In this document: in pieces, positions 1 to 12,368 of the stretch
How the letters are laid out: each line of letters starts with the position of its first letter
How positions within the stretch are numbered: the stretch's first letter is position 1
Assembly (NCBI GenBank): GCA_963788655.1
Contig: CAWBHS010000057.1
Coordinates: 288,001-352,000 of the forward strand
DNA length: 64,000 nucleotides
Source: an uncultured Verrucomicrobiae bacterium
GTDB taxonomy: Bacteria > Verrucomicrobiota > Verrucomicrobiia > Limisphaerales > JAFGQR01
Reading direction: 5' to 3'
Notes under the pieces: model-generated
Databases searched by the model: none
What the model was told of the DNA's origin: nothing
What the model saw: only the letters and a program-made list of their open reading frames with translations
Made by a program: the position numbers and the translations under genes

Positions 1-176
1 CAGCGGGATGCCAAGGCGGACACGAGCGCGTGGGAGCGGGAGGTTGCTTCCCAGCCCCGCAGAGTGTTGCCCCGGAAAACGATGGCCGCCATCGCGACAG
101 GCGGTGACGTGTTGGTGTATGCGCTCTACGGCCTGACCCCGGAGAAAAAGCCCTCGTCCAAACCGCCGCGAAATGA
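1..176 (+). pseudogene. C-terminal end of a type IIG (Eco57I/TaqI-like) RM enzyme, partial at window edge
   Basis: Frame 1 reads QRDAKADTSAWERE-(about 20 aa insert)-DVLVYALYGLTPE, then EKALVQTAAK* after one indel. This matches the typical 'ADTSALEREID.LVY.LYGLT.EE' terminus. Confidence 0.7.
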
Positions 177-653
177 ATGTCCGCATCCAGAAAGACGTTG
201 TGGAACTTGCCTCGCGGAAGCACCGGCAGGCATGGAAGAAAAGTTCCAACGTCAGCGAGCAGACCAAATCAGCCCAATGGGTTCCGTCTGCCGGTCGTGG
301 CGCCAGGTCGAGGTCCGGGGCGAGCCCAGGTGCCAGGTGCCGTCTGCCCGACGCTATGCCAAACGTCCGGGTGCGGGGTGCATCACGCTCTCACCGCCGT
401 TCTTCGCTTCGGGGTAAGGAATCTCTTTTTTCGCAGAGGGGTGCGAGTCGAAGGGGGGGTAGGGGGGCTTTCGGGGGCCGGGTTGAGCGAATGGAGGGCT
501 GCTTTACCAAAGTTGGTTTTTGGAAATTTCGACAGGTAATGTGCACTACCAGGAGTCGCAACGGCACGGTCCAGATCGCACCGTCGAAGAAGAACAAGCG
601 ATTGGATTCGATTTGCGGTTTCAACGACTTTCATTACCATCGCGCCAAATTAC

Positions 654-857
654 ATGATCTGGATCGCCCCATCGGAAAAGGACACAGCCAACGGTACCCT
701 GGAAAAGAATCTCTGGGCCGCGGCCGACCAGTTCCGCGCCAACTCCGGCCTCAAATTCCAGGAATACTCCGCGCCCGTCCTCGGCCTCAACATCAACAGC
801 TACGACGACGACCCGCACGATGCCACCGGCCGCTTCGACTTCGTCCAAACCAACTGA
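654..857 (+). pseudogene. hsdM: Internally deleted type I RM HsdM remnant
   Basis: N-terminal [27 protein letters not shown] is joined directly to the mid-protein [13 protein letters not shown] segment; the NPPF motif is absent. Confidence 0.8.
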
Positions 858-866
858 ATCAATTTT

Positions 867-3800
867 ATGCCGCGCAAGAAAACGATCAATCCTGCTGCTC
901 CGAAGGCGGGCGATTCCATCTCGTCGATCAAATATCCCGCCAAGCGGAAGAACATCCCGCCGGCGGGGCTCGAAGCGCAGGGCGTGCTTCAGGAGGCCCC
1001 TCGCCTTCGCTACGAATACAACCCGCATCTGCCGCCGGAGCTTCGCTCGGCCACGGATGCGAGGGAGGCGGACAAGCTGCCGGAGCTTCTGGCCATTGCG
1101 CGAAAACGCGCACTGTCAGCCGACGAGGCGAAGGTACTCGCGGACGCCCTGCGCCGCCACGAGCCGTGGCTGGAGTGGAGCGGGAAGCGCGAGAAACCGT
1201 GGTTCGAGGTCGATCCGGTGGCCCTGCACATGCACGAGCGCATGTCCACCCAGGCCATCCTGCGCGTGTTGGCGCGGGAGGATGTCGAGCGCGATCTCTT
1301 TGCCGATCCGCAGCACGATTATGCCAAGGCCGTGCAGTTCTACCAGCACGACATGGACTGGGCGAACCGCATGATCCTCGGCGACTCGCTCCAGGTCATG
1401 GCCAGCCTCGCCCGGCGCGAAGACCTCGCGGGCAAGGTGCAGATGATCTACATCGACCCGCCCTACGGCATCAAGTTCGCCTCGAACTTCCAGCCGCAGC
1501 TCGGCCAGCGCGACGTAAAGGACCGCGAGCAGGACCTCACCCGCGAGCCGGAGATGGTCAAAGCCTACCGCGACACCTGGACGCTCGGCATCCACTCCTA
1601 CCTCGCCTATCTGCGCGACCGGCTGCAAATGGCCCGCGAACTCCTCGCCGACTCCGGCAGCATCTTCGTGCAGATCAGCGATGAAAATCTGCATCGCGTC
1701 CGGTGCGTGATGGATGAGGTGTTTGGGGCGGGGAATTTCGTTGCCACCGTCATCGTTGCAGAAAACGGGTGCACCAAAAAGGAGGCACGACTGGAGCCAA
1801 TCAATGACTATCTCCTGTGGTATGCGCACGTGACATCGCGAAGGTTAAGACACGAACCGTCTACACTTCACGAAGAAGCGGATGAAGGCGAAGAAGGTAC
1901 GGTTCAATTCAAATCTTTTCACCAGATGGTGAGGCACGACGACTAAGCGATGGCGACGTGGCTGACGCTGCGGAATTGCGATCAAAGGGATCGGCGTCTG
2001 CATTTGCAAGCGATCCGCTGACTTCTGGCGGCGAATTTCGCACCCAACTATTCGCGATCAGTTTCAAGGACCAGATCTTGGAATCCGCCGCGGAATAACT
2101 CATGGAAGACTCAATCGAGGAATCTATGACGGCGTGCCTTGCGTCAGATCGGGTTGATGGCGGGCAAGGGCAGATTCGCTATCGGAAGTTCGTTGACGAT
2201 TATCGCAGCGCAGTGCCGTTGACGAATTTGTGGACCGATGCAGCGCGGAAGCACTGACAAGATTTACGTCGTCCAAACGACTCCAAAGGTGGTTCAGCGC
2301 TGCATCTTGATGACCACCGACCCCGGCGACCTCGTGCTGGACCCGACGTGCGGGAGCGGGACGACGGCGTATGTGGCCGAGCAGTGGGGCCGGCGCTGGA
2401 TCACCTGCGATTCCAGCCGGGTGGCGCTGGCGCTGGCCAAGCACCGGCTGTTGACGGCGAAGTTCGATTACCACCAGCTTCGCCCGCTGAGCGCGGAGGA
2501 CGTGGCGCGCAATCCGCACGGGACGTGGCTGAGCGGGGACACCCTCGCCGCGCCGGACGAAAAGCGGCAGAGGACTGCCGCACTCCAAGACGCTTCGCGA
2601 AGTTCAGGGGCGTCAGATGGTGCGCCAGCTTTTGGACTGCGCCAGTCCTCTGGCGCTTTTTCCACGGGCAAATTCACCTTCAAGTGCAAGACGGTGCCGC
2701 ACATCACGCTCAAGAGCATCGCCCGCAACACCTCGCTTGATCCCATCTTCGCCAAACACGAGCCGATCCTCGCGGATAAGCTGACCCAACTGAACCGCGA
2801 AGTCGCCAAGGTCGGCGCGGCGCTCAAGGAGAAGCTGGTGGAGAAGCTGATCCACAAGCATCGCGAATCCGGCGCGAACGCCGTGACGGACGCCGACACC
2901 CGCCGCTGGCTGCTGCCGGACACGCAGCCGGTCTTGATCCGCTCGTTCCCCGCGAAGAAGCCATTCAAGGGCGTGACGCCGAAGCAGGCGGAGGCTTATC
3001 GCGCCGCGATTCCCAAAGGCGGCTGGCAGGAATGGGAGATCCCCTTTGACACCGATGCCAACTGGCCGAAGCCCTTGCAGGAAGCATTGACCACCTACCG
3101 CGACGCGTGGCGGGCCAAGATGGACGAGGTGAACGCCTGCATCTCCGCCAACGCCGAGATGGAAGAACTGGTGGACAAGCCTGAGCCAGTGAAGGGCGTG
3201 GTGCGGGTGAGCGGCCCGTTCTCGATGGAAGGCGTCATCTCCGTGGAAGACGGCCCCGACACGCCGATCGGCGGAGCGCCGGACGAACTGGAGACTTTCG
3301 ACGGCGACGCGGCGGTGCAGAACGCCGAGGCGCATCTCGATACGATCATCCGCCTGCTCAAAGCGAGCGGCGTAGATTTCCCCGGCAACAAGAACATGAA
3401 GTTCAGCCGGCTCGATCCGCTGACGGATGCCGCCATGATCCATGCCGAAGGTGAGTGGGACACTGCGGCGTTTGGAGTCCCGCCTTCAGGCGGCTCGGGC
3501 GAACCGGCTAAAGCCGGGACTCCGAACGAGAGTTCCCGCCGCGTGGCCGTGAGCATCGGGCCGGCGGTCGGCAACTTCAGCGCGATGCAGGTGGAGGAAA
3601 CGCTGCACACCGCGGGACGCCGGAGCTATGACGACATCGTTTTCGCGGGCTTCGGCTTCGATGCCACCGCGCAGGCGATCATCGATGCCGATCCGAATCC
3701 GCGGGTGCGCTGCCACATGGCGCTCATCCGCCCGGACGTGGCGATGGGCGACCTGCTCAAGACGCAGCCTGGGAGCCAGCTTTTCACCGTCTTCAGCGCC

Positions 3801-4187
3801 CCGCGCGTGAAAGGCCCGACGAAGCAGGCGGACGGCGAGTTCACCGTCGAGGTCGAGGGGATGGATGTCTATGACCCGGTGAGCAACACGCTTTTCCCGA
3901 CGGACAAGGAGCGGATCGCCGCGTGGTTCCTCGATGCGGATTACGACGGACGGACGTTCTGCATCTGCCAGGCGTTTTTCCCGGACAAGAGCAAGTGGTC
4001 CAAGCTGGCCAAGGCGCTCGGCGATGCCGACGTGATAGACGAAGGTGCGTTCGAGGCGTTGAGCGGCTTGACGAGCCTGCCCTTCCCGCGCCCCGAGCGG
4101 CGGGGCAAAGGCGAGACCTGGCGCGTGGCGGTGAAGGTGATAGATCCGCGCGGCAACGAAGGTTTGCGGGTGCTGACGATCAACTAA
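867..4187 (+). CDS. mod: Type III RM DNA methyltransferase (Mod), frame broken around 1780-2240
   Basis: IYIDPPYG in ORF 867-1946 and LDPTCGSGTT in ORF 2238-4187 (beta-class motif order); C-terminal VKVIDPRGNE; upstream of res. Confidence 0.9.
2560..2660. repeat. REP-like inverted doublet (family A) inside mod
   Basis: 29-nt arms at 2560-2588 and 2632-2660, 26/29 complementary; each arm has its own hairpin GCG(G/C)CAG-AGGA-CTG(C/G)CGC. Confidence 0.85.
3469..3528. repeat. REP-like inverted doublet (family B) inside mod
   Basis: GGAGTCCCGCCTTCAGGCGG...CCGGCTAAAGCCGGGACTCC; the same motif is intergenic at 17186 and 62989-63100. Confidence 0.85.
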
Positions 4188-4225
4188 CGGCATGTTGTCG
4201 TGCCGCCAACCAAATGGATTGATTT

Positions 4226-5407
4226 ATGAAACTGAAATTTCGCAGAAATGCTCACACGTTGAAGGCGGAGAATTTCGGCCCGATCAAGTCGGGCCGGGTG
4301 GAATTTGGCGACCTCACCATCCTGGTCGGCCCGCAGGCCACCGGCAAAAGCATCTTCCTCCAACTGCTCAAGTTGCTCGTTGACATCCGGCACGTAAAGT
4401 ATGAGTTCAAGCGTGCCGGCATTGACTGGCAAAACAAGTTCGAGCTTTTTCTGGATGTCTATTTTGGGGAAGGCATGAAGAACTTGAAGCAACCGGGAAC
4501 GCATGTGGAATTCGGTGGCGCGCCGGAAAATCTGGAATCTCTAGTCGCCGATACCAAGGCGGCGAAGGGCGAATCCATGTTCTTCATCCCCGCCCAGCGC
4601 GTGCTCACCCTGCGCGATGGCTGGCCCCAGGCCTTCACGTATTACGACCCGGGCGTTCCCTTCACCGTGCGCGAGTTCAGCGAAGAACTGCGCCTTTTGA
4701 TGACGGATCTGTCGCCCACCGAAACCTTGTTCCCCGTGCCGCGCCGGTTGAAACAGGAATTCCGCGACCTGCTCCAGGCTCATGTCTTCCCGGGTTTCAA
4801 CCTCAAGATTGACCCAGCGCGAACACAGAAGCGCCTGGTGCTGACGGCGGGTGAAAACGGAGCGGCCTTGCCGTTCATGGTCTGGTCTGCCGGTCAGCGT
4901 GAATTCGTTCCGCTGCTGTTGGGCTTGTATCATCTGCTCACCCCGGCAGGATCGCCCCGGCGGCAGGGGGTGAAATGGGTTGTGCTCGAGGAGCTGGAGA
5001 TGGGCCTGCATCCGCGGGCCATCAGCATCGTCATGCTGATGGTTTTTGAATTGGTTTCACGTGGTTACCGCGTCTGCATCTCCACCCATTCGCCGCAGGT
5101 GTTGGATGCCGTGTGGGCCTTGAAGCACTTGCACGAGTGCCGGGCCAAGCCTTCCGCCTTGCTCGAAGTCTTCGACGCCCCCGCGACTCAGGGTATGCAA
5201 AGCCTCGCGGAGAAAGTGATGAAGAAGCGCTCCAAAGTTTATTACTTCGACCGCGAAGGTGAAACCATCCGCGACATTTCCGACTTGAATCCTGATAAAG
5301 AAGAAAGCGGCGAAAGCGGTTGGGGCGGGCTTTCCGAGTTCAGCGGCCGGGCCAGCGAAGCGGTCGCAAAAGCGGTTGCAAACGCAGGGAGAAAGGCCCA
5401 GTCGTGA
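4226..5407 (+). CDS. ABC-type ATPase (AAA_15/AAA_21-like), defence-associated
   Basis: NFGPI, Walker A GPQATGKS, signature WSAGQRE, Walker B/D-loop VVLEELEMGLHP, H-loop STHSP; no TM segments or long coiled coil seen. Confidence 0.9.
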   Translation: MKLKFRRNAHTLKAENFGPIKSGRVEFGDLTILVGPQATGKSIFLQLLKLLVDIRHVKYEFKRAGIDWQNKFELFLDVYFGEGMKNLKQPGTHVEFGGAPENLESLVADTKAAKGESMFFIPAQRVLTLRDGWPQAFTYYDPGVPFTVREFSEELRLLMTDLSPTETLFPVPRRLKQEFRDLLQAHVFPGFNLKIDPARTQKRLVLTAGENGAALPFMVWSAGQREFVPLLLGLYHLLTPAGSPRRQGVKWVVLEELEMGLHPRAISIVMLMVFELVSRGYRVCISTHSPQVLDAVWALKHLHECRAKPSALLEVFDAPATQGMQSLAEKVMKKRSKVYYFDREGETIRDISDLNPDKEESGESGWGGLSEFSGRASEAVAKAVANAGRKAQS

Positions 5408-5871
5408 GTTTCAAAGATGCGGTGGAGTCCACTCCACATCTTGAATGGTGTGCTGGCCTGCAAGCGTTGCGGCGAGAGGACAAGCCACACATTGACCCAG
5501 AAGACCCGCGGCGCTTAAGCGGTAGTGTAGATGTTGATACGGCCTGGCTACAGCTTGATCCGCATGGTAATCGCTGGGATTTTGCCATCGCTTATCAGCA
5601 TGCCAACCGTGCCGAAGAATTCGTTTACTGGGTGGAGCTCCACACCGCGAGCGACTCGCAGGTGAAGAAGGTGATTGCGAAGGCCAACTGGTTGTTGAAC
5701 TGGCTGAAAACCAGCGGCCAACGCCTCAACGCGTTTGAACGCGAAATCCTTTGGGTCGCCAGCGGTGCCACCACGTTCACGCTCACCTCGTTCCAGAAGA
5801 AGCAAATGGCCTTGGCGGGACTGCAACATCGCGGCAAGGTGCTCCGCATCCCCAACCAATATCCCGACTGA
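5404..5871 (+). CDS. 155-aa hypothetical protein, possible PD-(D/E)xK-like nuclease
   Basis: GTG start overlaps the ATPase stop (GTGA); pattern RWDFAIAY...WVELH followed by a basic helix (VKKVIAKANW). Confidence 0.65.
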   Translation: MSFKDAVESTPHLEWCAGLQALRREDKPHIDPEDPRRLSGSVDVDTAWLQLDPHGNRWDFAIAYQHANRAEEFVYWVELHTASDSQVKKVIAKANWLLNWLKTSGQRLNAFEREILWVASGATTFTLTSFQKKQMALAGLQHRGKVLRIPNQYPD

Positions 5872-5883
5872 GCGAAACAGCGT

Positions 5884-8800
5884 ATGCCCGAAATCCAGAT
5901 TCCCATTCAGCCAGTCGAGAACCCGATTCTTTGCTCGCCCTACAAGGAGCCGGATCAACACTGGCTTTACGACACCAAGACGGGCATTCCCACGAAGACG
6001 CCCGGTCGCCGGCCCGCGAGTTACTGGTTCAAGACCGAACGCACCGGCAGCGCCCAAATGTCGTTGCTCGCCGAAGAAGAACGGGACGACCTGCCGCTGG
6101 TGAACGCGCTCCGCGAAGACGTGCGCCGTTGGCGGGGCTCGAATTGGGAGAACGCCAGCGAAACGACGAAGAAACTGCTGCGCCATTGGTGGCGCGAAGA
6201 TCGGGGACGACGGTTGTTCTTCTGCCAGGTGGAGGCCGTGGAGACGATTATTTATCTTCGGGAGATTCTGGCCCTTGGCAAAAAGCCCCGCTGGACGCCA
6301 AAGCTGACGCTCGATGATTTCAACACGCTCAGCCATGGGAAGAACCCGCGCCCGGAGGAATGGATGGCGCGAGTAGCGCAGCATCCGAAGTTGGCCGACA
6401 TTCCAAATGAGGCAGGAGCAAAGGCGATCCACCGTTACGCCTGCAAGATGGCCACGGGCAGCGGCAAGACGGTGGTGATGGCGATGCTCATCTCGTGGGC
6501 GTTTTGCAATCGGGGCACGAAGCCGGGCGATCCGCGTTTTCCGCGTCGGGCGCTGGTGCTATGCCCGAACCTCACGATCAAGGAACGGCTGAACGTGCTG
6601 CGCCCCGGCGACCCGAACAACTACTACGAGATGTTCGACATCGTGCCGTCATCGCTGCGTCCCGAACTGGCCAAGGGCAAGGTGCTCGTGACCAACTGGC
6701 ATTGGCTGGCACCCGAAGCGGAGGTTCAAAACGTGGGCGGTGCGCCCATCGTGCGGCTGGGCGCGGAGAGCGCCGAGGCTTTTGCACGTAATCGCTTGGG
6801 CGATCTGTGGGACGAGGAACCGCTGATGGTCCTGAACGATGAAGGCCATCATGCCTACCGACCCGCACCCGTGGACGAGGATGTTAAACTTTCCGCCGAG
6901 GAAAAAGCCGACCGCGAAGAAGCGACGGTGTGGGTGAGTGGGCTGGACAAGATCAATGCCGCCTGCGGCATCGGCATTTGCGTGGATATGTCGGCCACGC
7001 CGTTCTACCTGCATGGCAGCGGTTACCCGGAAGGTTCGCCGTTCCCGTGGATCGTCAGCGACTTCTCGCTGGTGGACGCCATCGAGAGCGGCATCACAAA
7101 GATTCCGCGTCTCCCGGCGATTGATAACACGGGACGGCCCGACCCGAAGTATTTCAAATTGTGGGATCACATTGTCCGCGACTTACGCGCTGGGGAGAAA
7201 CTTACCGGTGGTAAGCCCAAGCCTGCGGTGGTCTATCGCAAGGCCGAGGATGCGTTGTTGACGCTGGCAGGCGAGTGGAAACAGAAACTCGAACAGGTCA
7301 CCTCCTCCGCACCCGGACAGGATCGCACTCCGCCGGTGATGATCGTAGTCTGTGACAACACGGATATAGCCAAAGAGTTTTACCGCGCCATCTCCGGGGA
7401 AGAACTCATTGAGGCAGACGTTCCCGATGAAGAGGATGACGATGAGGATGAAACCCCAAAGCGACGGAAGAAAAAGGCCAAAGCCAAGAAACACTACGGC
7501 GCTGGGCTGCCCGGTTTCTCCGAGTTGTGGAATCGTGAGGGAGCAGAAGTAACGCTGCGCATTGACTCCAAGCTGCTCGCTGCCGCCGAGAGCGAAGACC
7601 CAAACACCACGAAGAAAGAAGCGGCGGAGGAATTGCGGAAGATTGTCTCGACCGTGGGCCGCGTCGGCGAAGCCGGCGAGCACATCCGCTGCGTTGTCAG
7701 CGTGAACATGCTCAGTGAAGGCTGGGACGCAAACAACGTGACGCATATTCTCGGCCTCCGCGCATTTCACAGCCAGTTGCTTTGCGAGCAAGTGGTGGGG
7801 CGGGGCTTGCGTCGTATAGATTACACGCCCGACCCCGTAACGGGATTGTTGACCGCTGAGTACGTGGACATTTTCGGCGTGCCGTTTTCCCTCATTCCTT
7901 TCAAGGGCCGCGAGCCAGGCGGAGGCCCGCCTCCGGAAGACCGCCCCAAGCACGAAGTCATGGCGTTACCCGAGCGGAAGCAATTCGAGATTCGATTTCC
8001 CGTGGTCGAAGGCTACGTGGTTTCACTCCAGCGCAACCTGGTGACCGCCGATTTGGGCAAAGTTGAGCGCACGAAGCTTGATCCGTGGACAACGCCAACG
8101 GATGCCTTCGTTCGTCCGCAGGTCGGTTATCAGATCGGCCATGCCAGCGCCCACGGCGGCTTCGGTTTTGAACTGGTGAATCGCCAGGAATATTACGACT
8201 CAGTTCATCCGCAGACCATCGAGTTTGAGATAACGCGGGAAATTGTCCGTGCGCTTACCGAGGCGGCGCATCCCGGCAAGGAGCGTCTGCGACGCGAGAG
8301 TCGCAGCGCGTTGTTCCCACAGGTGCTCCGAATCGTGCAGGGTTATATGCGGGAGCGCGTGGAGTTCAATGGCTTGAATCCTTGTGAGGTAGGCTTGCAG
8401 ACGTATGCCCAGCACATCATCGGCCGGTTGATTGCCGCGATCACGCCGGACGACAGCAAAGGCGAAGCGCCGTTGCTGCCACGGTTGAACCGCTACAAAC
8501 CGATTGAAAGCACTGAGAAGGTTCACTTCAAGACAGTGAAGCCGGTGCAAGTCACGGGAGCCAGCCACCTGAACTTTGTCGCGTGCGACACCAACTCATG
8601 GGAGCAAGCGGCCACATTCCAACTCGAAAAGCTGGCGAAAGAGGGTGTGGTCTATTGCTACGCCCGTAACGACCGTCTGGAGTTTAACATTCCTTACGAG
8701 CTTTACGGGAATCCCCAAGTGTATGAACCGGACTTCATTGTCCGACTTCGCAACTCTGTGAGTGTGGTGACCGAAATCAAAGGCAAGTCATACGAAGACA

Positions 8801-9078
8801 CAGATGCCAAGCATCAGGCGGCGCGACGGTGGGTCGCAGCAGTGAATCATTGGGGCAGGCTTGGCGAGTGGGACTTCATGGTCTGCCGCGAGCCGCAACG
8901 ATTGTCCGACGAGTTTGCGAAGCTCGTAACCTCACGAAACGAACGCATCCGCGCCGTGGCCGCGGAGTTGAAAACACAGGCCGAAGGTGAGGTTGGGCGG
9001 CTGCGCTCCCTCGGATGGACACAGGCAGACTTTGCGCGAGCGCTCAAGGAATTGCTGGAAACCAAGGGGGGGCTGTAA
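5884..9078 (+). CDS. res: Type III restriction endonuclease (Res)
   Basis: KMATGSGKT, NDEGHH, MLSEGWD, QVVGRGLR helicase motifs; C-terminal YEPDFIV..EIKG nuclease motif. Confidence 0.93.
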   Translation: MPEIQIPIQPVENPILCSPYKEPDQHWLYDTKTGIPTKTPGRRPASYWFKTERTGSAQMSLLAEEERDDLPLVNALREDVRRWRGSNWENASETTKKLLRHWWREDRGRRLFFCQVEAVETIIYLREILALGKKPRWTPKLTLDDFNTLSHGKNPRPEEWMARVAQHPKLADIPNEAGAKAIHRYACKMATGSGKTVVMAMLISWAFCNRGTKPGDPRFPRRALVLCPNLTIKERLNVLRPGDPNNYYEMFDIVPSSLRPELAKGKVLVTNWHWLAPEAEVQNVGGAPIVRLGAESAEAFARNRLGDLWDEEPLMVLNDEGHHAYRPAPVDEDVKLSAEEKADREEATVWVSGLDKINAACGIGICVDMSATPFYLHGSGYPEGSPFPWIVSDFSLVDAIESGITKIPRLPAIDNTGRPDPKYFKLWDHIVRDLRAGEKLTGGKPKPAVVYRKAEDALLTLAGEWKQKLEQVTSSAPGQDRTPPVMIVVCDNTDIAKEFYRAISGEELIEADVPDEEDDDEDETPKRRKKKAKAKKHYGAGLPGFSELWNREGAEVTLRIDSKLLAAAESEDPNTTKKEAAEELRKIVSTVGRVGEAGEHIRCVVSVNMLSEGWDANNVTHILGLRAFHSQLLCEQVVGRGLRRIDYTPDPVTGLLTAEYVDIFGVPFSLIPFKGREPGGGPPPEDRPKHEVMALPERKQFEIRFPVVEGYVVSLQRNLVTADLGKVERTKLDPWTTPTDAFVRPQVGYQIGHASAHGGFGFELVNRQEYYDSVHPQTIEFEITREIVRALTEAAHPGKERLRRESRSALFPQVLRIVQGYMRERVEFNGLNPCEVGLQTYAQHIIGRLIAAITPDDSKGEAPLLPRLNRYKPIESTEKVHFKTVKPVQVTGASHLNFVACDTNSWEQAATFQLEKLAKEGVVYCYARNDRLEFNIPYELYGNPQVYEPDFIVRLRNSVSVVTEIKGKSYEDTDAKHQAARRWVAAVNHWGRLGEWDFMVCREPQRLSDEFAKLVTSRNERIRAVAAELKTQAEGEVGRLRSLGWTQADFARALKELLETKGGL

Positions 9079-9080
9079 TC

Positions 9081-9527
9081 ATGCCAAACCAGAACTATCG
9101 CGTGGTCCTGGACACAAATGAAGTGGTTGGCGCTGGAACAGGCTGGTTGGATCATGGTGTTCCGGTTCCAGACAAGAACTCGCACCGTCGCGTTTTGATC
9201 CGGGTTGCGGAGTCGCACACCGGACTCTACAGCGGCAAAATCGTGGGCGAATATTTGGAGAAGCTCGTGGACCTCGGGCATCCGAAGGAGCGAGCGGTGA
9301 AGATGATCACCTACCTCATGGGAGCCTTCAGCCCGGTGAAGATCGTTTCCAAGTCTGCGCCCGTTCCTCCCGCCGATCCCGATGACGAAGTTGTTCTGCT
9401 CTGCGCAATTGACGGCAATGCCGATTACCTCGTCTCCAAGGACAAACACCTGACAGACATCAAAGGTAGTTACACCAAGCCGGTGATTGGACGAAGTGGC
9501 GAGTTGTCTGGGGCTTTGGGAGCGTGA
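9081..9527 (+). CDS. PIN-domain protein (VapC-like putative toxin)
   Basis: VVLDTN...DPDDEVVLLCAIDGNADYLVSKDKHL. Confidence 0.88.
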   Translation: MPNQNYRVVLDTNEVVGAGTGWLDHGVPVPDKNSHRRVLIRVAESHTGLYSGKIVGEYLEKLVDLGHPKERAVKMITYLMGAFSPVKIVSKSAPVPPADPDDEVVLLCAIDGNADYLVSKDKHLTDIKGSYTKPVIGRSGELSGALGA

Positions 9528-9557
9528 ATCATTGACAGATTCCCCTTCGGGTCGCGG

Positions 9558-9690
9558 TTGCGCGTGATTGATTGGGAGCAGCCGGCGAACAATGATTTCC
9601 TGCAGGTCAGCCAGTTCAGCGTCACCGGGGCGCTCTACACCTGCCGGCCGGATCTGGTCGGTTTCGTCAACGGCCTGTCGCAGGTGGTCA
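9558..9690 (+). pseudogene. hsdR: Type I RM HsdR N-terminal fragment
   Basis: RVIDWEQPANNDFLQVSQF..RPDLVGFVNGL, cut before the ELK motif. Confidence 0.8.
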
Positions 9691-10624
9691 GCCGACGTTG
9701 CCGCGTTTTACTCTTTCCTGCGGTGACTTCAATGTGGCCGGCCACGCGCCACACGTCCGCCCAATCCAGTCGAAGCAATTCCGATGTCCGCAGTCCGGCC
9801 AAACCACCGATGGCAAGCATCGCCTGCATGGAGCCATGGGCCGCTTGCAACAAGTCTTGAAATTCACTTGGCTGGTAGAACTGGACTTCGGCGGTGTTGG
9901 CGCGTTCCGGACGCATCGCTTCGGCTTCGTTCAAGCGGTGCGTCGGCGGCAGGTAGTCTTTGCGAATAGCCCATTGATGGAATTGCCGGATGGCCGCGCG
10001 GTAATGGTTGCGGCTCTTCGCGGAAAAATCACTGAGCGTGCCAATGAAGGCGTCTAAATGTTCCTTGCCCAGGTCGCAGACGGCGGTGTTAGGGAACGTG
10101 TCGGCGAATTTACGGAGCTGGATTTCCCGATTGTAGGCATATTTTGAGGAGAGTTGCGCCCGCTGACCGTTGGTAGCACGGGTTCTGGGTGCGATGGAAC
10201 CTAGAAACTCCGTCACGGCTTCGTTGATGTCTTTGCGCCCGACATTGGCAACCGTGCGCAGATAGCCGGTGACGGCCTCGCCCAGCGTACGCCCGCCCAG
10301 TTTGACCGCCGCCTCGGCAAACTCAGAAACAGCAGCCAATAGGGAGACGCGACGCCCAGTGGACTGGTAGAAGCCTTGCAGCCGTTCAAATGCGGCAAGG
10401 GCGTCGCGGGACTGAGAGGCGGTGAGGGCGACCGCTTGCGAGCCCTTAGCCAATTCGCGCACGGCCCGCTCGGCGGCTGCGCGGGCTTCCGAATAGGCAG
10501 CGAAAGTTTGCATCCGGCGTTTGCCTGCAACGCTATAAGCGACCCGGTAGTAATTGAACTTTCCGCTTCGAGCGTAGATTTTCGCCTGGCTATTGCGATG
10601 GCGGATGGTGACGGGAAACTTCAC
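9690..10624 (-). pseudogene. int: C-terminally truncated tyrosine integrase
   Basis: LAGLRTSELLRLDW and KSKT present; sequence breaks into the hsdR fragment before the HxxR and catalytic Tyr motifs. Confidence 0.85.
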
Positions 10625-10647
10625 TCGACGGTCAGAAGTTCGGGGTG

Positions 10648-10669
10648 AATTCTGTGCAAATTCTGTGCA
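10648..10669. repeat. 11-bp tandem direct repeat, possible integrase arm-type site
   Basis: AATTCTGTGCA x2 between the tRNA 3' end and the integrase start. Confidence 0.55.
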
Positions 10670-10705
10670 AGATTGTTGAGGATTACCGTTATCCTCAGTG
10701 TTTTT

Positions 10706-10790
10706 TGGTGCGCATAGCAGGACTTGAACCTGCACGGGTTTCCCCACTACCACCTCAAAGTAGCGCGTCTGCCAATTCCGCCATATGCGC
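10706..10790 (-). tRNA. tRNA-Leu(GAG)
   Basis: GCGCATA acceptor stem, anticodon arm CTACT-TTGAGGT-GGTAG, long variable arm, GGTTCAAGTCC T-arm, encoded CCA; 85 nt. Confidence 0.97.
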
Positions 10791-10976
10791 AAGCTGCGGC
10801 GCTTAATGAACCAACCCAAACCGGAATCTGCAAGCCCGAAATATCGGTCCGTCCCCGGCAATTGACCGGAGGCCCTCGAGGTCGAGGCGGCCCGGCCAAG
10901 AGGTGACTGCCGCGGCCGCCGATTTTGTCGCAGATTTGCTATGGCGTTTTGGGCGGCGCCTGCTTATTCTTTGGGC

Positions 10977-12368
10977 ATGCCAGAAAAGAAAATGAACCAG
11001 ATCCCGCGGGATTTGCGGGAGCTTTTTCAGAAGGGCATGGCAGCGTTGCAGCGGCAAAACTACGATTATGCCATTGCCATTTTTAATCAGGTGCTGACCC
11101 GCGAGCCGGGGTTTTTCGACTGCCGGCAAAGTCTGCGGGCGACCCAGTTCAAAAAAGCCGGCGGCGGCACGACCTTTTTCAAGAAAATGTTCGGCGGCGC
11201 CAATCCCAATCTCGCCAAAGCCAAGCTGGTGATGCAGAAAGATCCGGCCGAAGCCATGGCCGTCCTCGAACAGGTGCTCAACAGTGATCCGCCCAACACG
11301 GGAGCCCACAAAATGATGGCCGACGCCGCGTTGGCTGCGGGTTTTCCGCTCACCGCCTGTTTGTCGCTGGAGATCCTGTTGAAAGGCTCCAACAAAGACT
11401 TCGATTTGGCCATGCAATACGGCGCGGCGCTGCGGGCCAGCGGGCAAATTGAAAAGGCCGAAACGGTTTATACGGACCTGGCCCGGCAGTATCCCAACAA
11501 GGGCGAAGTGACCCAGGCGCTCAAAGATCTTTCCGCCAAGCGCACGTTGCAGGAAGGCGGTTATGACGCCCTGTCCGACGGTTCCGGTTCCTATCGCGAC
11601 ATCTTGAAAAACAAGGAGGAAGCCATCGCCCTGGAACAAGAAAAACGCGAAGTCAAAACCGAGGACGTGGCCAACCGGTTGATCCAGGAATATGAAACGC
11701 GATTGGCCACCGAACCCGGCAACGTCAAGCTGATGCGCAACGTGGCCGAGCTTTACGCGCAAAAACAGGACTTCAACCGGTCCCTTGAGTATTATGAAAA
11801 GATCCGGTCCACAGCCAGCGGCGCGGACGCGTCCCTCGAAAAGGCGATTGCGGAAACCACGTTGCGTAAATTCGATTACGAGGTCGAACAGCTTGATCCC
11901 AACGCGCCCGACTATGACGCCCAAGTGGCCCAACTTCAGGCGCAGCGAACCGAGTTTCAACTCCGCGAATGCCAGGCCCGGGCCGAAAAATATCCCACCG
12001 ACCTGCAAATTCGGTTCGAACTGGGTCGGTTGCTATTTGATGCCGGCAAAATCAGCGATGCGATCCAGGAATTGCAGAAAGCCCAGGCCAATCCCCAACG
12101 TCGCTTGCAAGCGATGAGTTTGCTGGCGCAGTGTTTTGCCAAACGCGGCATGAACGATATGGCCGCTCGGAAATTCCAAGAAGCCTTGAAAGAAAAACTG
12201 GTCTTCGACGAAGAGAAGAAGGAACTGATCTATAATCTGGGCTGTGTGTACCAGAAGACCGGCAAAGCCGAGGAAGCCATCGAGCAGTTCAAACAAATCT
12301 ACGAAGTGGACATCGGCTACAAGGACGTTGGCGCGAAAGTCGATGCCTATTATTCGAGCCAGGGTTGA
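10977..12368 (+). CDS. Tetratricopeptide repeat protein
   Basis: Repeated helical TPR patterns (e.g. YNLGCVYQKTGKAEEAIEQFKQI). Confidence 0.85.
   Translation: MPEKKMNQIPRDLRELFQKGMAALQRQNYDYAIAIFNQVLTREPGFFDCRQSLRATQFKKAGGGTTFFKKMFGGANPNLAKAKLVMQKDPAEAMAVLEQVLNSDPPNTGAHKMMADAALAAGFPLTACLSLEILLKGSNKDFDLAMQYGAALRASGQIEKAETVYTDLARQYPNKGEVTQALKDLSAKRTLQEGGYDALSDGSGSYRDILKNKEEAIALEQEKREVKTEDVANRLIQEYETRLATEPGNVKLMRNVAELYAQKQDFNRSLEYYEKIRSTASGADASLEKAIAETTLRKFDYEVEQLDPNAPDYDAQVAQLQAQRTEFQLRECQARAEKYPTDLQIRFELGRLLFDAGKISDAIQELQKAQANPQRRLQAMSLLAQCFAKRGMNDMAARKFQEALKEKLVFDEEKKELIYNLGCVYQKTGKAEEAIEQFKQIYEVDIGYKDVGAKVDAYYSSQG

Follow-up and report, generated by a model that had tools for sequence, protein, structure and literature searches.

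The stretch of DNA considered here, called the window, comprises 64,000 nucleotides (nt) of an uncultured Verrucomicrobiae bacterium and begins at position 288,001 of contig CAWBHS010000057.1; all coordinates are positions in this window unless another locus is named. It carries four consecutive genes on one strand: mod of a type III restriction-modification (RM) system, which is in pieces, a gene of 393 amino acids (aa), a gene of 155 aa, and the type III-like gene res. The two middle genes, an ATPase gene and its small partner, are the subject of this report (Table 1). They are coupled through a GTGA overlap, in which the GTG start of the partner (5404-5406) shares 4 nt with the TGA stop of the ATPase (5405-5407), and the homologues of the partner begin at the alignment column of this GTG. 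A spacer of 38 nt separates the mod stop codon (4185-4187) from the ATPase ATG at 4226, and one of 12 nt separates the partner stop codon (5869-5871) from the res ATG at 5884. These coordinates confirm a preliminary description of the locus, which had seen two intact, GTGA-coupled genes filling the gap between mod and res. Scans for promoters and terminators gave counts no higher than expected by chance, from which nothing was learned about the operon.

As judged by profile matches, the gene pair is an intact member of PDC-M56, a catalogued and uncharacterised candidate family of PADLOC. In PADLOC-DB v2.0.0, the ATPase matches PDC-M56A (PDLC04710) with an E-value of 5.5e-140 and 464.7 bits (residues 11-385 on profile positions 3-379 of 382), and the partner matches PDC-M56B (PDLC04711) with an E-value of 2.2e-35 and 119.8 bits (residues 2-143 on positions 7-145 of 151). 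The partner is the sole match of the PDC-M56B model within its own genome. The layout is that of PDC-M56, with A before B, adjacent and on the same strand. The full-length matches, together with 284 partner homologues (out of 340 candidates) at an E-value of 0.001 or better, indicate that both are real genes and not chance open reading frames (ORFs). PDC stands for "phage defence candidate", a guilt-by-embedding prediction in PADLOC (Payne, Hughes, Fineran, Jackson 2024, bioRxiv 10.1101/2024.01.29.577857). The module is already known as a candidate, and an ordinary PADLOC run would flag the locus. The preliminary description had presented the pair as a new module, a claim that falls with the full-length matches of both proteins to PDC-M56.

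The 393-aa protein is an ABC ATPase whose nearest known counterpart is PtuA of Septu. Across 29 aligned ATPases the ABC motifs are invariant, from Walker A (G35..G40-K41-S42), the Q-loop (Q124) and the signature (S221-x-G223-Q224) to Walker B (E255-E256) and the H-loop (H288). Pfam AAA_21 reaches 62 bits, where the cut-off is 27, and the Pfam scan returns AAA_21 and AAA_15 only, with neither a TOPRIM nor an HNH domain. Motif alignment and Pfam agree here with what had been read from the sequence at the outset, a full ABC motif set free of TOPRIM or HNH extensions. The AlphaFold2 model has a pLDDT (predicted local distance difference test) value of 81.9. Its closest structure by Foldseek is PtuA (8ee4_D, Septu/retron) with an E-value of 7.9e-9 and a template modelling (TM) score of about 0.4, followed by Rad50 (4ncj_C, 5.8e-7); long coiled-coil helices are not apparent in the secondary structure of the model. 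Neighbours by sequence profile are an OLD-family enzyme, PtuA and GajA, every match being partial, and NCBIfam families stay far below threshold (MAD3, 42 bits with a cut-off of 420; PtuA NF041760, 22.2 bits with a cut-off of 500). The best PADLOC match outside its own family is AriA (4.7e-18), which is partial and covers residues 185-294; PDC-M47A reaches 1.7e-6. A strongly conserved C-terminal motif (residues 365-374) is modelled as a low-confidence loop preceding the terminal helix, and may act as a docking element for an effector.

The partner has numerous homologues. Its profile, run against 1.84 billion representatives, recovered 1096 clusters at E-values of 0.001 or below, 727 of them at 1e-10 or below. 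The 120 homologues listed are about 155 aa long and, the window's own protein aside, 59-75% identical; none of these 120 has an informative name or a Pfam domain, "hypothetical protein" being the most that any is called. Pfam gave nothing consistent on 35 family members (an AHJR-like match in two of the 35, best E-value 0.024), NCBIfam returned no family for the partner, and a profile search of the PDB yielded nothing below an E-value of 0.76. The PADLOC scan gives PDC-M56B alone, in keeping with the earlier view that the partner is unlike AriB, PtuB and the TOPRIM of GajA at the sequence level.

Structural comparison is more informative. The AlphaFold2 model of the partner, built from a 35-sequence alignment, has a pLDDT of 95 and a predicted TM score of 0.90. 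Its top Foldseek rows are nearly all PD-(D/E)xK nucleases, namely EndoMS, Cdn1, the Avs3 nuclease, BsaWI, FokI, BspD6I, BamHI and Card1. VIA-align, which is independent of Foldseek, gives Z-scores of 6.4 for Card1, 6.3 for VC1899, 6.1 for Upx and 5.8 for Can2, then 5.2 for NucS, 5.0 for the BspD6I small subunit and 4.9 for FokI. The nearest named atlas cluster is PDDEXK_11, with a score of only 0.79. In an alignment of 41 sequences that includes distant members (35-42% identity), 14 residues are invariant in all 41, among them D45, D59, E78, H80 and K93. In the model, D59 opens strand 60-64, E78-x-H80 lies inside strand 73-82, and K93 is found on the next helix; the places that D59 and E78-x-H80 take on their strands are presumably the canonical ones for PD and (D/E)xK. 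The model thus points, short of proof, to a restriction-endonuclease-like fold, and D45, D59, E78-x-H80 and K93 are proposed as a candidate active site on the basis of model and conservation. The D..ExH pattern described earlier is borne out by the invariance of D59 and E78-x-H80, and gains two further candidate catalytic residues. The nuclease character then attributed to the 155-aa protein is helped by the PD-(D/E)xK domains heading both structural rankings and held back by scores that are middling.

A scan of one genome per species gave 35 related loci, mostly in metagenome-assembled Verrucomicrobiota and otherwise in Planctomycetota, Acidobacteriota, Lentisphaerota, Kiritimatiellota, Myxococcota, Bacteroidota, Pseudomonadota and Bacillota. 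The distribution is patchy over at least eight phyla at 55-77% identity, and sporadic within the host phylum, where the partner model matched one of 400 other sampled genomes. The partner lies directly downstream of the ATPase gene in 33 of the 35 loci; in the remaining two, it sits at the first bases of a contig. A distant copy resides on the mobilizable plasmid of Opitutaceae TAV5, where PDC-M56 A and B are both confirmed with an equally good match. No partner homologue was found in phage records. Fusions of part of the ATPase with the partner occur in two of the 150 representatives listed, and lend weak support, at the level of sequence, to a physical link between the two proteins.

Genomic contexts were classified for 36 copies, the window included, by means of PADLOC, Pfam and tblastn on the two nearest greedily called ORFs on each side. 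RM-type operons host 13 copies (11 type III, one type I and one DISARM- or Druantia-like), so that the nesting noticed in the window recurs elsewhere. The 11 type III copies lie between mod and res, or beside remnants of these genes, and belong to three families: PDLC03632 with NF046055 (the window), PDLC03646 with PDLC03654 (L003 and L010, with a res remnant in L018), and PDLC03636 with PDLC03648 (L001, L004, L006, L008, L019 and L020, with a mod remnant in L029). In the type I operon (L025), the pair follows hsdS and lies upstream of hsdR, and in the DISARM- or Druantia-like operon (L021), it has a DrmMI-like methyltransferase on one side and a DruE-like helicase on the other. All spacers around nested copies are about 40 nt or less. 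For three further copies (L002, L015 and L031), the distance to genes of defence type is between a few hundred and a few thousand bases. Many stand-alone copies lie amid housekeeping genes, such as IDH and AlaRS, PDH and PFOR, Rho, RNR or KAS. Beside the roughly 20 stand-alone copies, tblastn with mod, res, hsd and DISARM-like queries found no RM remnants, although heavily eroded ones could escape such a search.

When the concatenated pair is placed on a tree of 30 rows, the context labels are unclustered (13 changes, compared with a mean of 13.3 after shuffling), so embedded and free copies occur in the same lineages. These contexts show that the pair is independent of any one RM family. In six of the 11 type III contexts (the window, L006, L018, L019, L020 and L029), the pair is open while the RM genes beside it survive broken or as remnants; that the pair outlasts its host RM system is a hint about selection or addiction. 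Two of the loci hold additional genes. In L025, the stretch from the pair to hsdR holds two more ORFs, of 214 and 103 aa, that match nothing in Pfam or PADLOC (L025:3806-4802). In L020, an ORF of 426 aa that closely precedes the type III mod (L020:3890-5170) has partial PADLOC matches to pAgo and SIR2-associated models (8.6e-16), which suggests a larger defence island in that genome.

The host operon in the window has a Res above the cut-off of NF046055 (1.3e-273; 910 bits, cut-off 800; profile 1-969 of 970) and an adjacent Mod, and is thereby classed as a type III RM system of the BPTD_3080 family, though its mod is a pseudogene. The N-terminal part of mod matches PDLC03632 at 5.8e-72 (profile 7-319) and the C-terminal part at 2e-71 (from profile position 464). 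Both parts are in frame 3; the stretch between them is readable in frame 2 only and contains a stop (2096-2098) at a place where Trp stands in both intact homologues compared (G249 and G185). A three-frame reading of the assembly sequence gives two frameshifts and one nonsense codon in total. Other long genes of the window have open frames, res (1064 aa) and an ORF of 1680 aa among them, which argues against a general assembly error behind these lesions. Among the sequencing runs searched for this organism, none holds it (best share of words, 0.10). Hardly any cover fell on the pair region in four metagenome runs, from which no absence of the pair follows. The middle part of mod is probably the target-recognition region. 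Metagenome contigs of relatives match mod on either side of positions 1727-2297 and skip about 560-590 nt; this fits a hypervariable target-recognition region, and the same stretch holds the frameshifts and the stop.

The junction between mod and res is occupied by other cargo in related operons. The Res family was found in 28 of the 400 other sampled genomes of the phylum, and the pair is absent from all 11 loci fetched from these. In G249 (Res 50% identical), res follows mod after about 30 nt with no cargo, and in G185 (Res 56% identical), the gap is taken up by a gene of 356 aa (L042:4485-5555). This gene has a Fic domain (Pfam, 1.5e-21) plus a winged helix-turn-helix and matches the PADLOC model SoFic (PDLC03963, 1.9e-59); SoFic is a validated defence gene. 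In G227, the gap holds a 174-aa ORF with no Pfam or PADLOC match (L045:4320-4844). In one metagenome contig of run X2, at depth 16, window positions 4185 and 5884 are separated by 15 other letters; this is a lead to a relative of this operon that lacks the 1.7-kb cassette, from a single contig whose shorter side has 74 matching letters. Across three type III families, the junction of mod and res recurs as a site of cargo.

The operon lies on a tRNA-associated island. The 29 nt at the 3′ end of the tRNA-Leu gene (10706..10734) are repeated exactly at L039:110-138, which corresponds to window positions -1690..-1662; this copy lies 1.69 kb upstream of the window start. The direct repeat and the tRNA-Leu(GAG) gene bound an island of 12.4 kb, most of whose genes are decayed. 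This agrees with the decay noted earlier among the neighbours of the pair: mod is broken, the integrase-like gene is cut short, and hsdR and hsdM are reduced to N-terminal fragments. The integrase-like ORF has weak, sub-threshold Pfam matches (Phage_int_SAM_1, 9.6e-5; Phage_integrase, 3e-4, profile 4-66 of 172 only). The hsdM fragment (L039:850-1224; PADLOC MTase_I, 4.1e-13) and the hsdR fragment flank the type III operon, and a type I system may once have stood at or around the island site. The left arm of the island also holds an intact 69-aa DUF2283 gene (Pfam 2.8e-8) at L039:1517-1726 (window -283..-74). The PIN_3-domain gene, for which PADLOC gives no match, begins 2 nt past the res stop codon and resembles a fifth member of the operon.

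Table 1. Genes and features of the island that lie within the window
Feature	Position	Strand	Description
Type III mod pseudogene	867..4187	+	N-part 867..1943, C-part 2238..4187; PADLOC MTase_III PDLC03632
PDC-M56A, ABC-type ATPase	4226..5407	+	ATG start, 393 aa, open; AAA_21, AAA_15
PDC-M56B partner	5404..5871	+	GTG start, 155 aa, open; PADLOC PDLC04711; no Pfam or NCBIfam family
Type III-like res, BPTD_3080 family	5884..9078	+	Intact, 1064 aa; NCBIfam NF046055; Pfam ResIII
PIN_3-domain gene	9081..9527	+	148 aa; Pfam PF13470 2.8e-10
Type I hsdR N-terminus remnant	9561..9680	+	Pfam HSDR_N 2.1e-8, profile 100-138 of 198; PADLOC REase_I 1.5e-6
Tyrosine-integrase-like gene	9635..10654	-	Cut short, next to tRNA; sub-threshold Pfam matches
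tRNA-Leu(GAG)	10706..10790	-	ARAGORN

Taken together, the pair is best read, with a probability of roughly 0.6, as a self-contained two-component anti-phage module in which an ABC ATPase acts as sensor or scaffold and a nuclease as effector, carried as embedded cargo that is independent of the type III system. For such a module we infer nuclease activity, an ATPase-nuclease complex, an anti-phage function and a trigger. The ATPase, of the PtuA/OLD/AriA kind, would hold or license a small nuclease of restriction-endonuclease fold. Once infection is sensed, this nuclease would cut nucleic acid with the putative site formed by D45, D59, E78-x-H80 and K93. The module would ride in the mod-res operon as tightly packed cargo and not depend on type III RM. 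Its autonomy is drawn from the copies amid housekeeping genes, the plasmid copy and the unclustered contexts on the tree.

Several observations weigh against this reading. Foldseek with the partner model found no match in the PDB at an E-value of 1e-3 or better, and the best VIA-align Z-score of 6.4 is below 8, in the range that the tool calls common. The partner has His80 in place of the canonical Lys of the ExK motif, and Pfam, NCBIfam and the PDB profile search link it to no nuclease family by sequence. About 20 of the 36 copies have no defence gene detected in the nearest two ORFs on each side, six of these copies lacking one flank, so that defence islands back the reading in part. The partner is shortened in L033 and L035, so the pair does decay. 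The term "PDC-M56" was not found in a literature search, and the accessible portion of the study that defined the 145 PDCs has its authors calling them untested (bioRxiv 10.1101/2024.01.29.577857).

An alternative that is unlikely on present evidence is that the pair guards RM systems, sensing the inhibition of restriction, for example by anti-restriction proteins of the DNA-mimic kind, and triggering abortive infection in the manner of PrrC and PARIS. Embedding would then secure co-expression with the RM system that is backed up, and the pair is indeed nested repeatedly in methyltransferase-nuclease operons of five kinds. PrrC and PARIS have been described as RM guardians, PrrC being an anticodon nuclease in a type I RM locus, in the portion of the source at hand (PMC12707154). 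Several ABC-ATPase systems are triggered by anti-defence proteins, according to the accessible text (bioRxiv 10.1101/2024.01.29.577857), and AriA of PARIS is the best match of the ATPase outside its own family. Against a guardian role, the mod pseudogene leaves no working RM system to guard in the window, about 20 of the 36 copies adjoin no detected RM gene, the pair and the Res homologue of G223 lie on different contigs, and embedded and free copies are intermixed on the tree. Similarly doubtful is a reading in which PDC-M56 genuinely guards RM systems by means of an unusual D-ExH-K nuclease, its ATPase responding to anti-restriction proteins or to restriction complexes that have stalled. If this held, selection for co-transcription would explain the capture of the pair at methyltransferase-nuclease junctions of type I, type III and DISARM-like operons, and type III mod-res junctions, where SoFic, the 174-aa gene and PDC-M56 are seen, would be a general unmined hotspot of new defence genes.

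Less probable still is a selfish cassette, either an addiction pair resembling a toxin-antitoxin system or a self-mobilising pair whose nuclease aids insertion at operon junctions. Such a cassette would account for a pair that stays intact while RM decays in six of 11 type III contexts, for insertions that, in operons unrelated to one another, fall after one gene's stop codon and before the following start, for clean two-gene insertions between housekeeping genes, for the relative with an empty site and for contexts that change freely on the tree. However, no terminal repeats were found in window 1..11000, the two-gene unit holds no recombinase, and intact genes amid decay fit selection for defence equally well. 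Pairs of ABC ATPase and nuclease that have been tested are defence systems, as far as the accessible text of the source goes (bioRxiv 10.1101/2024.01.29.577857).

It is very improbable that the two proteins are integral accessory subunits of the type III enzyme, forming a four-gene RM variant. The operon-tight spacing (38, -4 and 12 nt) and the like arrangement in other type III operons would suit such subunits, but the RM systems that host the pair are of different families (type III of three families, a type I and a DISARM-like one), the many stand-alone copies contradict an integral role, and in the Res family the pair is missing from all 11 loci fetched. In G249, one of these relatives, and likewise in one metagenome contig, res directly follows mod. 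A housekeeping DNA repair pair of a Rad50/SbcC-like ATPase and a nuclease, to which the Rad50 match of the ATPase might point, can hardly be credited, given the one match in 400 genomes of the phylum, the patchy spread over phyla, the location on an island and a plasmid, and an ATPase model that shows no long coiled-coil helices.

What is added here is a structural hypothesis for the effector and the type III mod-res junction as a recurrent cargo site. PDC-M56 gains a putative effector of restriction-endonuclease fold, in which a D/D/ExH/K set is invariant and whose companion is an ABC ATPase resembling PtuA; the invariant residues are concrete targets for mutation. According to the accessible portion of the preprint, BREX, DISARM and type I systems were the only ones mined in the PDC study (bioRxiv 10.1101/2024.01.29.577857); guilt-by-embedding now reaches type III operons.

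The pair can be set beside several known systems. It is not a Gabija GajA or OLD enzyme: the ATPase has no TOPRIM, its 393 aa compare with 528-675 aa for the solved OLD/GajA chains, which it matches in part. The likeness to PARIS and PrrC lies in the ABC-type ATPases and, for PrrC, in the location within a type I RM locus, as for the pair in L025. The pair differs from PrrC, a single polypeptide, in being made of two proteins and in its many copies without an RM neighbour. It cannot be placed in PARIS either, since the AriA match is limited to residues 185-294 and no AriB model matches the partner; AriB is TOPRIM-associated in the accessible text of the source (bioRxiv 10.1101/2024.01.29.577857), whereas the partner here is not.

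HEC-02, which combines an ABC ATPase with a NERD-type PD-(D/E)xK nuclease, was likewise derived from embedding and has been validated, as the accessible text reports (bioRxiv 10.1101/2024.01.29.577857). The logic would be the same here, an ABC ATPase with an effector of the PD-(D/E)xK superfamily found by embedding, but HEC-02A is a weak, partial match to the ATPase (1.7e-9, residues 252-296) and HEC-02B does not match the partner. Septu PtuAB, its retron-associated form included, shares the arrangement of an ABC ATPase with a separate small nuclease, here putative, directly downstream, and among solved structures PtuA is nearest to the ATPase. The nuclease of Septu, PtuB, is of the HNH type. 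The pair falls outside Septu, with the PtuA equivalog below its cut-off, a TM score of about 0.4 and a partner without an HNH match. From PDC-M56 itself there is no difference at the family level, as both proteins match its models over their full length in the same gene order.

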